11,070 bases of DNA, from NCBI GenBank assembly GCA_964518475.1, contig CAZFGR010000039.1, forward strand, positions 1 through 11,070. Direction: 5' to 3'. The position numbers and the translations under genes are program-made. The notes under the pieces were generated by a model, which was not told where the DNA came from, did no database searches, and saw nothing but the letters and a program-made list of their open reading frames with translations. The DNA comes from an uncultured Nitrososphaerota archaeon (GTDB lineage: Archaea > Asgardarchaeota > Njordarchaeia > Njordarchaeales > Njordarchaeaceae). Below are positions 2,352 through 4,920 of the stretch, one piece after another. The first letter of the stretch is position 1, and every line of letters begins with the position of its first letter.

Positions 2352-2543
2352 ATGCCCTACAACTACATTATAACTTTCAAAATCAATCGCGATTTACTAG
2401 AACATCTCGATAAACTAGTAAAACAAGGCTACTACAATAGCAGAAGCGAAGCAATCAGAGAAGCAATCAAACAGCTAATAATAATACATAACAACTTCCG
2501 CGAACAACTAAGAAGAGCATGGGGTGAGGAGGAAGATGGCTAG
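2352..2543 (+). CDS. Ribbon-helix-helix (CopG/MetJ/NikR-type) regulator
   Basis: IITFKINRDLLEHLDKLVKQGYYNSRSEAIREAIKQL matches the archaeal CopG RHH pattern; GAGGTGA RBS. Confidence 0.9.
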   Translation: MPYNYIITFKINRDLLEHLDKLVKQGYYNSRSEAIREAIKQLIIIHNNFREQLRRAWGEEEDG

Positions 2544-3108
2544 GAAGAAAGACAAAATAAAATTACCAGATAAACTCTTTACCATTGTGGAAGTGGAGCT
2601 AGAGATTCAGCGCATTGCTGGCGGTGAACCTGGATTAAGTATAAATCAATTCGGAGAGCCAATAGAAACGCGTTTCCAGAACAACATATTTAGGAGAAAG
2701 GAAAATGGCACAAGGATCTTGTTTGAAGAGAAACACGTGAAGGGGCTTTTGAAGGAGGTAGTTAGAATCTTAGGACTGTCAACCAAAGAAAAAGGCATAC
2801 TTTTCAAAATTCGCCATAGCCTGGCAATGGAACCATCCGAAATATTAATTCCTCCTGGCACAGAGGTTTACGGTCGCCCAATACCGGTTCTCTTAGGGAA
2901 CCGGGTATCAATCACATTCACAGAAGTCATCGAGAAACCGCTAAGAGTAAAATTCAGATTAAAAATCCCGAACGGACCAGACGGACCAGTAGTAAGCCCT
3001 GAGTTACTACGTAAATTATTCGAAGTGGGGCAAACTGTTGGCATTGGGGCTAAGAGATCGTTGGGCTATGGCAAATATAAGGTGGTGAAATTCGAAGTCA
3101 TAACTTAA
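2536..3108 (+). CDS. Stand-alone RAMP-superfamily protein, Cas7/Csm3-like (candidate Vipr-type effector), 190 aa
   Basis: N-terminal strand plus IAGG, helix HVKGLLKEVV (cf. Csm3/Cmr4 SLKGxLR), TEVIE strand and C-terminal G-rich loop GIGAKRSLGYGKY typical of group-7 RAMPs; GGAGG RBS before ATG 2536 (start revised from 2524). Confidence 0.85.
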   Translation: MARKKDKIKLPDKLFTIVEVELEIQRIAGGEPGLSINQFGEPIETRFQNNIFRRKENGTRILFEEKHVKGLLKEVVRILGLSTKEKGILFKIRHSLAMEPSEILIPPGTEVYGRPIPVLLGNRVSITFTEVIEKPLRVKFRLKIPNGPDGPVVSPELLRKLFEVGQTVGIGAKRSLGYGKYKVVKFEVIT

Positions 3109-3109
3109 A

Positions 3110-3137
3110 CCTTCTTTCCTTTTTTTTATTTTTTATT
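3110..3137 (+). terminator. Oligo-T terminator of early operon
   Basis: CCTTCTTTCCTTTTTTTTATTTTTTATT right after the RAMP stop codon. Confidence 0.7.
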
Positions 3138-3140
3138 AAA

Positions 3141-3409
3141 CCAATACTGCCCTTTACCTAGCATTACAAAACAGTACTGAACTCTCCTCTCCTCATCGCA
3201 TTACATAACTAGACATAACATTACTTAACAAAACGATCCAGCAGCGCTAAACAAAACACTACTTTACAAAACGCCTCACCCCCATTAGCAAACCTAACCG
3301 AGACGTTCCATAACTCTGCAATCCTACAGCGCTAAACATAACGAGACAAGACGAAACAATCCTGACCCGGCAACACATAACAGTATTTTACAAGCCGGGC
3401 CAGTACTAT
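3141..3409. ncRNA. Pentamer-periodic repeat array, putative guide-RNA (vrRNA-like) array partnered with the RAMP
   Basis: 52 pentamers in 6 phase blocks (3141-3195, 3198-3242, 3246-3285, 3288-3327, 3331-3370, 3370-3409). C at position 2 in 51/52; position 1 A30/C14/G7/T1; position 3 A25/T17/G7/C3; positions 4-5 variable. Example: GCATT ACATA ACTAG ACATA ACATT ACTTA ACAAA ACGAT CCAGC. The periodicity is directly visible; RNA function is inferred. Confidence 0.75.
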
Positions 3410-3521
3410 CTACTCAAGTTAAAATTCACAATAAGGCCCGGAAAGGCCGAGCAATGAAGACATCTTCTGAGCAATGAAGCCCCGGAGCAAATAATTAGTA
3501 AGTTTTTCCTGAGGTGGTGTA

Positions 3522-3590
3522 ATGACCTATCTCTGGAGTCCAGATGACGACTTAATAAAAGAAGCATTAGAGCGAGGGCCAGAGGTCTAG
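3522..3590 (+). CDS. 22-aa micro-ORF MTYLWSPDDDLIKEALERGPEV
   Basis: GAGGTGG RBS at 3511-3517; its TAG overlaps the GGTGAT RBS of the next gene. Confidence 0.5.
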   Translation: MTYLWSPDDDLIKEALERGPEV

Positions 3591-3600
3591 GTGATGTTAT

Positions 3601-3990
3601 ATGCCCATCAAAACCAGAATTGTTTTTCTCCCGGATTTTAAGATTGATATGCTCCCCTTCAGTTTTTCCACAAAAAAATTCACGATTTACATCGAGAAAC
3701 TAGCACCGATGGAATTCGAAGAAGTAATCAAAAATAATGTAATCGCGGCAAAGCGAGGCTACCAGGAACTAGAGATCCTATGCTTTATAAAACATAAGGA
3801 GACACGGGAACTCCTGAACACAATAATAAAAAACACCGGCTGGAAAATAAAACTCAGCACAGAAACATACAAAGTCCCCGAAAACCCAACAACAGACATC
3901 ATATTAATAGTAAAAGCAGAAAAAGTAGATGAACACGACTACGTCTTTCACACTTATATCGTATACGTGGAGACAGGGTGGAGGGAGTAG
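3601..3990 (+). CDS. Divergent DUF1874 (STIV B116 / AcrIII-1 ring nuclease family)-like protein
   Basis: By-eye match to the remembered family pattern: FLPDFKIDML ~ YLxNAFSxNML, IYIEKLAPMEF ~ VxIxKIxxxEF, CFIKHKETRELLN ~ SIGHxSTxxLxN (His kept); NR and RLxEG motifs not evident; GGTGAT RBS. Confidence 0.55.
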   Translation: MPIKTRIVFLPDFKIDMLPFSFSTKKFTIYIEKLAPMEFEEVIKNNVIAAKRGYQELEILCFIKHKETRELLNTIIKNTGWKIKLSTETYKVPENPTTDIILIVKAEKVDEHDYVFHTYIVYVETGWRE

Positions 3991-4050
3991 GGTAGGAACC
4001 GGATCGCTGCTTTACCCTACTTCTTTTTCTTCTTTATTCTTTATTATTTT
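3986..4050 (+). terminator. Stem-loop plus long T-rich tract
   Basis: AGTAGGGTA (3986-3994) / TACCCTACT (4013-4021) inverted repeat followed by TCTTTTTCTTCTTTATTCTTTATTATTTT. Confidence 0.65.
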
Positions 4051-4293
4051 ATTATTATAGATGAATAAGACGAATTCTCAACTCACAAACAAGTATCAAC
4101 TCTATTACAAACACTATACTGAAAGTAAACAAATACAAAAACATCTCTCTTCTTCTCGCTTTTATCAAAAATAAGCTATGAGGTAAGTTTTTGGAGCTGC
4201 AATAACAGGGTCTTCCTCACAACTCATGTAATGTGACCCCCTCGTATCTTCTCAGGACCTTTATAATTTTAGCGATAACTATAGCAATCACCT

Positions 4294-4920
4294 CTAGAGG
4301 ATCAGACTTTCCTCGGTTAGCAATCTGTGTTTTACTCTTTCTAGGTATGGCTCCATATCTCTCGCTGAGATACTGTAATATATACTCGTGTTTTTAGGAT
4401 CCGTATGCCTCAAGAAACGCTGTAAAACATTTAGAGGAACACCCAGTGTCGCTAATAATATCGCAATGCTATGCCTAAGCATATGGGGGTATACTCTTTC
4501 ATACCCAAAAACCTTGAACGCATCATGTACGGCTCGCCATACACCAAATCTTGTTCTGATATCTACTATTGGTGAATCTAGATCTTTTCCGGCCAAAAAC
4601 CTCTCCCAAAATCTTATCTCGTCATTTGGCACATGTCGTAAACTTATCGTTATTTTGACAAAACTACGCTGTTTTAAGGTCGGTGCATGAAGCAATCTCG
4701 ATGCGATATCGAGATCTCTACGCCTTACTTTTAATAATTCTGACGCCCTTAAACCGGTCCAGAATAGAAACCCAACAATAAACCGTCTCTCTTCCCAGGA
4801 TTGCCTCTTCCTTCTTCCTTCAATATACTTGTCTAAACGATTGAGGACTTCAAGCACTATTTTTGGCCTAACAGCCCTAATTACTCTTCCTCCAACCTTA
4901 GTTACAATAAGATAGTCCAA
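4294..4920 (-). CDS. Tyrosine recombinase/integrase (Xer-like), catalytic domain only
   Basis: TGLRASE (R), TLKQR (K), PHMLRHS (HxxR), FLRH (H), TSIYY (Y); 208 aa with no N-terminal core-binding domain; TTG start with GGGTGA RBS. Confidence 0.92.
   Translation of the reverse strand: MDYLIVTKVGGRVIRAVRPKIVLEVLNRLDKYIEGRRKRQSWEERRFIVGFLFWTGLRASELLKVRRRDLDIASRLLHAPTLKQRSFVKITISLRHVPNDEIRFWERFLAGKDLDSPIVDIRTRFGVWRAVHDAFKVFGYERVYPHMLRHSIAILLATLGVPLNVLQRFLRHTDPKNTSIYYSISARDMEPYLERVKHRLLTEESLIL

Follow-up and report, generated by a model that had tools for sequence, protein, structure and literature searches.

A VIPR-like locus of a Njordarchaeales archaeon, with a lone Cas7-like RAMP gene followed by an array carrying cytosine at every fifth position

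The window analyzed here is a whole contig of 11,070 bp (CAZFGR010000039.1) from a 2.33-Mb metagenome-assembled genome (MAG; GCA_964518475.1, 121 contigs) of an archaeon of the Asgard-affiliated order Njordarchaeales. It carries a gene for a lone 190-amino acid (aa) RAMP protein, closely followed by an array in which cytosine recurs at every fifth position of the gene strand in blocks of eight pentamers. We are highly confident that this locus is a member of the VIPR family. VIPR was first described in 2026 (bioRxiv 10.64898/2026.04.26.720920 and 10.64898/2026.04.26.720927); according to the main texts of these preprints, Vipr is a lone ancestral RAMP that forms a filament on an RNA (vrRNA) with one protomer per 5-nt YNNGG unit, and the NN bases of the vrRNA pair with DNA such that every third target base is skipped. 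An earlier note on this DNA, made from its letters alone, had described such a system (lone RAMP, pentamer RNAs, NN bases reading gapped DNA), and its description agrees with those main texts. Its VIPR-like reading of the locus is supported, except that the anchor on the gene strand is C (mostly AC) and not GGY. VIPR is already published and the window locus is not new in kind; what is new is that it is archaeal, has a single-base anchor and 8-unit guides separated by slips, and carries its anchor on the reverse strand relative to published cases.

The best explanation overall, to which we give an even chance, is a VIPR member in which a lone RAMP uses C-anchored guides transcribed in the sense direction. 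RNA would be made from the gene strand of the adjacent array, and the Cas7-like RAMP would polymerize on it with one protomer per pentamer, gripping the fixed letters and exposing the variable ones, which would serve as a gapped guide to double-stranded DNA. The array would encode five discrete guides of eight units each, the unit being 5'-N N N [A>G>C] C-3', so that a cytosine, mostly with A in front of it, would be the anchor in place of the G-G of published vrRNAs. Each guide would start with a unit ending in GC and close with one ending in CC, and processing would take place at the 2- or 3-nt slips between guides. Since the operon holds no nuclease gene, nuclease-free silencing would be the default outcome.

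The array (3158-3367) is built of five blocks, each with exactly eight pentamers of the form NNN[A>G>C]C, and C occupies the fifth position in 40 of 40 pentamers. Written as they stand on the gene strand, and with no strand assigned to the features themselves, the guide units are unit A at 3158-3197 (CTAGC ATTAC AAAAC AGTAC TGAAC TCTCC TCTCC TCATC, then GC), unit B at 3200-3239 (ATTAC ATAAC TAGAC ATAAC ATTAC TTAAC AAAAC GATCC, then AGC), unit C at 3243-3282 (AGCGC TAAAC AAAAC ACTAC TTTAC AAAAC GCCTC ACCCC, then CA), unit D at 3285-3324 (TTAGC AAACC TAACC GAGAC GTTCC ATAAC TCTGC AATCC, then TAC) and unit E at 3328-3367 (AGCGC TAAAC ATAAC GAGAC AAGAC GAAAC AATCC TGACC, then CG). The linkers GC, AGC, CA, TAC and CG are thus 2 and 3 nt long by turns and, because they alternate, two blocks make up a super-period of 85 nt (17 × 5). 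Blocks C and E both begin with AGCGCTAAAC. Blocks tend to open with a pentamer ending in GC, to continue with pentamers ending in AC and to close with one ending in CC. Anchor frequencies on the gene strand are NNN[A 43%, G 26%, C 21%]C; read on the opposite strand, the unit is G[T>C>G]NNN, and its third position has no pyrimidine restriction. Four further pentamers stand in phase ahead of block A (3138-3157), and a degenerate stretch lies past block E (3368-3409). The distance from the RAMP stop codon to the array is 32 nt when the in-phase run is counted, as the earlier note did, and 49 nt to the first clean block. The same note had counted C in 51 of 52 pentamers. The array is real, although not in a single continuous register: any fixed register gives C in 30 of 54 pentamers at most, so that the count of 51 of 52 holds only if phase slips are admitted.

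Significance was assessed from runs and blocks. The run score of the array was 50, compared to a maximum of 10 among 5000 shuffles, none of which reached the observed score; any C run of at least 8 units was found in 0.9% of these shuffles, and C runs elsewhere in the window never exceed 7. Due to the phase slips, the array taken as a whole has little Fourier power at period 5 (1.14, with shuffles reaching up to 3.05), its power being at 2.5 nt, and run and block statistics were used instead for this reason. The canonical GGY/NN (YNNGG) repeat is absent from the strand of the vipr-like gene in the window. Tandem 5-nt repeats of fixed and hypervariable bases, with at least four units, do adjoin the gene. 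The definition given in the VIPR paper admits “a related consensus” beside the canonical repeat, and a non-canonical repeat is therefore no bar to membership.

The regions on both sides of the array were annotated from their sequence and, past the array, predicted folding. The spacer between the RAMP gene and the array (3109-3157, + strand), which is nearly identical in a homologue with 84% protein identity, contains T8-A-T6 at 3120-3134 followed by ATTAAACC, and a TATA-like TTATTAAA at 3133-3140. This spacer may terminate the RAMP gene, serve a sense array as its promoter, or do both. An inverted repeat, CTGACCCGGC / GCCGGGCCAG, surrounds a degenerate sixth unit (3362-3403, no strand assigned). 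The array flank (3435-3507, no strand assigned) comprises a GGCC-CGGAAA-GGCC hairpin at 3435-3448, GAGCAATGAAG at 3449-3459 and again at 3469-3479, and T5 on the + strand at 3503-3507. Read in sense, this flank may be a terminator, or else it may be an A-rich promoter-like stretch of the opposite strand. The distance from the RAMP stop codon to the next open reading frame (ORF) is 492 nt. That ORF (3601-3990, + strand, 129 aa) begins just past the flank and has no match in Pfam or PHROGs.

The vipr-like gene occupies positions 2536-3108 on the + strand and was assigned to single-domain RAMPs (Cas7/Csm3-like) on the basis of fold, family profile and tree. An exhaustive search yielded 65 distant relatives of about 200 aa each, and AlphaFold2 was run on the alignment (A2) that forms the family profile of these relatives. 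The resulting model comprises one domain (predicted local distance difference test score 92.8; predicted template modeling score 0.85). When it was compared with the PDB using Foldseek, the top 50 matches were all CRISPR RAMPs, among them Cmr-beta (E 3.5e-6), type VII Cas7 and Csm3. An all-against-all structural search (VIA) gave matches at Z scores of 12.4 to 10 that include Csm4 (12.4), Csm3 (12.1), chain 6s6b_I of the Cmr-beta complex (11.7), Cmr4 and gRAMP. Structural matches span residues 11-190. Because the model and both searches agree, the Cas7-like RAMP fold that had been proposed for this protein is confirmed at the level of a predicted structure. A beta-hairpin at residues 112-132 lies where the thumb is expected and is a putative thumb. 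Vipr is a minimal RAMP with a single RRM core to which a glycine-rich loop and a thumb are added, and the single domain, G-loop and putative thumb of the modeled protein conform to this. The C-terminal G-rich loop, GQTVGIGAKRSLGYGKY, aligns with the G-loops of Csm4 and Cmr6; it was recorded as GIGAKRSLGYGKY in the feature list and as GIGAKRSLGYGK when the protein was evaluated as a minimal RAMP. Sequence searches with the RAMP returned matches to the G-loop only (Cas6, Csm4 and Cmr6, at E values of 0.016 to 0.6).

Cas7-group RAMPs (Csm3, Cmr4 and type VII Cas7) and Csm4 are the best structural matches in libraries that predate the Vipr entry 36pp (Foldseek E values from 3.5e-6 to 1e-4), with root-mean-square deviations of 3-3.5 Å over 135-165 residues and a G-loop sequence in common with the window protein. 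Identity is 10-16%, the window RAMP is without partner subunits, Cas10/Cas5/Cas6 or CRISPR repeats, and the footprint implied by its array is 5 nt, in contrast to 6 nt in the Cas7 group. No cas genes were found among the window proteins using Pfam and PHROGs, and the window contains no CRISPR repeats, every 20-mer being unique; the earlier claim of a lone RAMP gene with neither cas genes nor a CRISPR array around it is borne out. A CRISPR array and partners of the Cas10/Cas5/Cas11 or Cas14 kind were also missing from the window and from homologous loci, and the RAMP does not fit a Cas7 subunit of a type III or type VII CRISPR-Cas effector.

Evidence for membership of the VIPR family comes from homologues and their arrays, besides the RAMP fold with its G-loop and the absence of cas genes and CRISPR repeats. 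The family profile matches gp16 of Hydrogenobaculum phage HP1 (E 1.8e-29), and a G-T-N-N-N array lies directly downstream of that gene. IMG/VR was surveyed with two sub-alignments, giving about 150 loci, almost all of which have period-5 arrays. Judged by sequence, the link to bona fide Vipr (SUSP1 Vipr, PDB 36pp; UniProt X1U2U4) appears to be an indirect one, running through HP1 gp16 and the GQWR branch with its G-type arrays. A search with the alignment of the close clade returned nothing from IMG/VR or the GTDB species genomes, and JGI metagenomes gave only contigs that were already known.

The base that is periodic on the gene strand follows the phylogeny. Among 74 IMG/VR loci of the branch with the non-aromatic G-loop GxGA[S/T/L/D]RSQG (the C-side branch, on which the window RAMP falls in the tree), 58 have only C arrays, 2 only G arrays, 9 both and 5 no clear array. 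The corresponding numbers for the 80 loci of the branch with the G-loop GQ[W/F]R (the G-side branch) are 0, 71, 7 and 2, and a single change of the C/G label suffices on the maximum-likelihood tree (support 77/93). The gene-strand base is G in Escherichia phage SUSP1 (for which there are small-RNA sequencing data), HP1, P0077 and L030 (an archaeal genome of the same phylum); it is C in the window, in the four close-homologue sets and in the nearest outgroups with retrieved DNA (P0007-10 and P0085). A cytosine on the gene strand is a clade-wide rule of one deep Vipr branch, and the main texts of the VIPR papers make no mention of such a clade-wide complement of the anchor.

Close homologues (56-84% identity) fall into four sets (L001/2/16, L003-6/17, L007 and L008/9). 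All four have blocks with C at every fifth position on the gene strand just downstream of the stop codon, mostly of about 8 units. These arrays extend over about 140 nt in L001, about 900 nt in L003 (where the contig edge ends it) and about 1,170 nt in L007. The variable bases differ between arrays; the C anchor and the 8-unit blocks are kept. Together with the roughly 150 more distant viral loci, these relatives bear out the expectation that homologues should have adjacent period-5 arrays. The window and the copy with 84% identity (L001) are nearly identical from the 3' end of the gene through ...TTATTAAACCAATA, a stretch of 75 nt that includes the T-rich spacer, and diverge beyond it. One guide core, CATAACTAGACATAACATTACTTAAC, is identical between the window (3200-3239, unit B) and L001 (2618-2642), and the other guides differ. 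This conserved core suggests a target that may be shared and maintained. A guide array is expected to behave in this way, with gene, spacer and a single guide core retained as other guides change.

An alternative that does without guides is that the array is a DNA-level element (for example iterons, or a replication or packaging site with 5-bp phasing) or a decaying remnant, with the RAMP an orphan having some other role. We regard this as very improbable. It could draw on the absence of any Rfam family in the array and on the target searches described below, in which 13 decoding rules gave no target in the own genome and nine of them none above shuffles in related elements. However, period-5 arrays accompany the protein family at about 150 independent viral loci and in the four close-homologue sets, and their variable positions turn over while anchor and block length are kept. 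Five base pairs make half a DNA turn, and the same 5-nt step fits the solved RNA filament with one protomer per 5 nt.

Published VIPR systems share several features with the window. Both have a lone G-loop RAMP with a single RRM, which is carried by a mobile element and is not part of a CRISPR locus. In both, the neighboring arrays are made of 5-nt units in which some positions are fixed and others hypervariable, an array contains several guides, and the operon includes a small DNA-binding gene, which in the window is of the ribbon-helix-helix (RHH) type. In SUSP1, the type II exemplar, we confirmed that period-5 arrays lie on both sides of a 195-aa gene (28474-29061); the pockets of its Vipr accept a flipped GGY: G1 is held by H17 and D177, G2 by R138 and W178, and Y3 by R179. 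The window differs from SUSP1 in that its anchor is a single invariant base with a soft neighbor rather than GGY, and in that its G-loop has A-K-R where SUSP1 has D-W-R (D177 and W178 being the contacts to G1 and G2). Its guides have 8 units, are separated by 2/3-nt slips and are without a structured tail, compared to 9-16 units and a pseudoknot tail in published cases; its periodic base lies on the opposite strand relative to the gene; and its host is an archaeon of the Njordarchaeales. Seven types of VIPR have been described. Alternative repeats (NNNGG, YNNNG and NNNNG) and staggered and ribozyme-interspersed arrays are also described, and GAC/NN, CAC/NN, WGT/NN and TGH/NN arrays are listed in bioRxiv 10.64898/2026.10.21.760802. 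The window shares degenerate anchors with these non-canonical arrays, its minus strand reading W-G-Y/NN and its plus strand N-A-C/NN, and its guides abut without tails as in the staggered arrays. Differences are that an alternating 2/3-nt slip with an 85-nt super-period is not described for them in the main texts of the papers, and that those texts give no experimental strand for them.

Given VIPR membership, the choice is between the two strands of the array. Transcription in sense, with C-anchored guides, is the sub-reading we prefer, and it takes rather more than half of our confidence in membership as such. It is favored by the clade-wide division into C and G arrays with its single change on the tree, by the A-K-R of the G-loop where SUSP1 has D-W-R, and by gene layout. 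At 49 C-side loci, the median gap from an upstream array to the start codon is 32 nt (often 13-30 nt) and holds nothing but a Shine-Dalgarno site; the array of L040 abuts the ribosome-binding site of the next co-directional gene; and in phage Mae-JY09 the array begins 5 nt past the stop codon of the last gene in a one-way module, so that the C-bearing strand must be transcribed there and an antisense promoter would have no space. At L053/54, an upstream G-array lies 115 nt from vipr and a downstream C-array 25 nt after the operon. In the window, L001 and L007, the gene strand has tracts of T5 or longer just past the arrays. The sense array RNA is predicted to be unstructured (minimum free energy −14.8, z +0.4).

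Several findings weigh against the reading as a VIPR member with C-anchored sense guides. Similarity to the solved Vipr, taken by itself, does not appear significant at the level of sequence: comparison of the family profile with PDB sequences gave a weak match (E 0.2) to “SUSP1 Vipr protein” (36pp_D), which is nearly full length (profile positions 60-203); hhalign aligned 43 C-terminal columns, the G-loop only, at a probability of 43%; and the profile has no match in the SUSP1 genome. Every experimentally verified vrRNA in the main texts of the VIPR papers is G-anchored. The complement of the window array reads GG-NNN, GT-NNN six times and then GC-NNN, exactly like known motifs; complements of P0007/8/9 read GG-NNN, and the G-side relatives HP1 and P0077 have GT-NNN. 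A simple inversion explains these complements; a change of specificity must call the match coincidence. T8-A-T6 between gene and array would end a co-transcript, so that a separate promoter has to be assumed. Finally, the aromatic residue that in SUSP1 stacks on G2 is present in P0050 (GLGAWRTQG) and P0068 (GLGSFRHLG), both of which nevertheless have C arrays. Covariation between the G-loop residue and the array strand had looked perfect at the level of clades; it was rejected on account of these two proteins.

The opposite arrangement, with the array transcribed convergently to the gene, is a rival reading to which we give somewhat less than an even chance. Guides would then read 5'-GG NNN, (G[U>C>G] NNN) ×6, GC NNN-3', and the whole C-side branch would encode arrays antisense to vipr, with vrRNAs of the “YNNNG” or “WGT-NN” kind. 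Such an arrangement would fit the published NNNGG, YNNNG, NNNNG and WGT/NN repeats, and the minus strand reproduces known anchors, which in the nearest outgroups include the canonical GG. The Y3-holding Arg of SUSP1 is retained, and aromatic G-loop residues persist in the two C-array proteins named above. Past the far end of the array, the minus strand has A-rich TATA-like stretches in the window (3509-3495), L001 and L007, and in the flank it folds better than the plus strand (z −3.1 versus −1.5). On the other hand, many bacterial C-side loci leave no room for an antisense promoter between the array and the start codon or next gene, no T tract would end a minus-strand transcript before the RAMP gene in the window or L007, and the close spacing from stop codon to array equals that of the G-side branch, where arrays are sense. 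Note that some analyses did not bear on the strand. No ribozyme or other Rfam family matched in the arrays of 52 loci, and Rfam therefore provides no strand marker; a terminator scan, together with sigma-70 and terminator prediction, on the viral loci performed at chance level; and pentamer logos in either reading contain no additional signal of polarity.

Targets were sought in three ways. With 13 decoding rules applied to the own 2.33-Mb MAG, only the array itself matched, which agrees with the absence of self-targeting in the VIPR systems described in the published main texts. Nine of these rules, applied to 29 guides from four related arrays and searched against related elements, gave nothing above shuffles. 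For the third search, NN was taken as the second and third base of the gene-strand pentamer with one skipped base, following the published rule; note that the decoded double-stranded site is identical under the sense and antisense readings. Each guide thus has 16 read bases, and the search space was 14 genomes of the host's order (26 Mb). Matches with at most one mismatch numbered 0, 13, 1, 6 and 5 for guides A to E, of which 0, 0, 1, 1 and 1 were exact. A composition control gave 31 matches, compared to the 25 real ones. Expected values were obtained from 300 shuffled guides on the own genome, scaled to 26 Mb. Three exact 16/16 matches were observed where 0.37 were expected (Poisson P about 0.006), and one-mismatch matches were at chance (17.8 expected), so that the excess is limited to the exact class.

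In published VIPR systems, targets often lie in coding sequence and the skipped base falls on the wobble position. Two of the three exact matches (guides C and E) are in ORFs with skips at wobble positions. The exact match of guide E is in a chromosomal major facilitator superfamily (MFS) transporter gene of a congener, and the homologous MFS site in G287 (similar flanks, ORF of about 500 aa) has one mismatch to the guide; the exact match of guide D has in-frame stops. Both the guide D and the guide E matches are possibly due to chance. The exact match of guide C (G295:C70:4045-4067) covers codon positions 1-2 of G-G-L-N-R-L-L-A in a 389-aa gene (L201, G295:C70 3808-4977) of an archaeon of the same order. 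This gene stands between cas5 and cas3 in the operon cas1-cas2-cas4-x-cas7-cas5-[389]-cas3, where type I operons have the large subunit Cas8. No model of Pfam, NCBIfam or PADLOC matched it, and no homologue was found in 400 genomes of the phylum. We treat the match of guide C to a gene in the cas8 position as a lead and not as a finding. It is unlikely, though worth stating, that VIPR guides are used against host defense, in which case the element would silence CRISPR-Cas as an RNA-programmed anti-CRISPR. A guide match of L007_3217 to the same gene (15/18) is not wobble-aligned and was taken as chance. As an observation in its own right, the 389-aa gene lies in a complete type I cas operon and is possibly a new family of large subunits.

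The contig as a whole is a mobile or virus-like element, because the RAMP gene is missing from six other genomes of the host genus and a syntenic copy exists on the 13.6-kb metagenomic contig L001 (84% RAMP identity). Domain scans of the window proteins were performed with Pfam and PHROGs. An IS607-like serine recombinase (106-720, + strand) has a MerR-type helix-turn-helix and a serine resolvase domain (phrog_6620, E 1.2e-55), and a short tyrosine integrase of 208 aa is encoded at 4294-4920 on the − strand (Pfam/PHROGs). A protein of >1000 aa with a Laminin_G_3 domain resembles virion proteins, and a 503-aa protein has faint similarity to tape-measure proteins. The setting on an archaeal mobile element that had been proposed is in keeping with the two recombinases, the virion-like protein and the synteny with L001. 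Relative to L001, the window has an extra segment of ∼760 nt (about 3530-4290) between array and integrase, which contains the ORF at 3601-3990. Immediately upstream of the RAMP gene, a gene for a 63-aa RHH (CopG) protein (2352-2543, + strand; Pfam RHH_1, E 3.2e-9; transcriptional repressor in PHROGs) has a stop codon that overlaps the RAMP start. L001 has the RHH gene in the equivalent, overlapping position; it was not found upstream of RAMP homologues with 56-61% identity. We consider it a candidate accessory DNA-binding gene of the vap-like kind.

Arrays of some other loci in the survey have features of their own. L018, the nearest outgroup, has a divergent pair comprising a 56-aa gene (− strand) and vipr (+ strand), with an array on either side (13-66 and 1062-1278). 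The two arrays are mirror images in orientation: C lies on the strand of whichever gene an array follows, and both have the junction motif GAAGG in the G reading. The 96-kb metagenomic contig L023 contains a G-type array (3794-4592) with a stagger of +1 nt, in which guides of 5-8 units meet at an invariable G|GTA junction. It is probably an example of what the VIPR paper calls “staggered arrays”. A Pistol ribozyme match is found on the same contig at 121-183 (39.4 bits compared to a gathering threshold of 34.5; E 1e-3), ∼2.8 kb upstream of its G-type vipr. Two C-side arrays of high GC content, L040 (2783-3969) and L185 (4728-5113), are made up of 8-unit blocks that each open with CCGAC (complement GTCGG). 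This opening is a conserved junction and may be a processing signal.

These results place VIPR on a small mobile element associated with a Njordarchaeales archaeon; very little is known about mobile elements in this group. The guides, with 8 units and alternating 2/3-nt slips, would be very short natural guides of 16 read bases, and the exact match in a CRISPR-Cas effector operon makes a role in anti-defense testable. If the guides are antisense, half of the family has an unexpected convergent or divergent arrangement of gene and guides. If they are sense, Vipr can anchor on cytosines instead of guanines, which would widen both the recognition chemistry and the design space of a programmable DNA binder.

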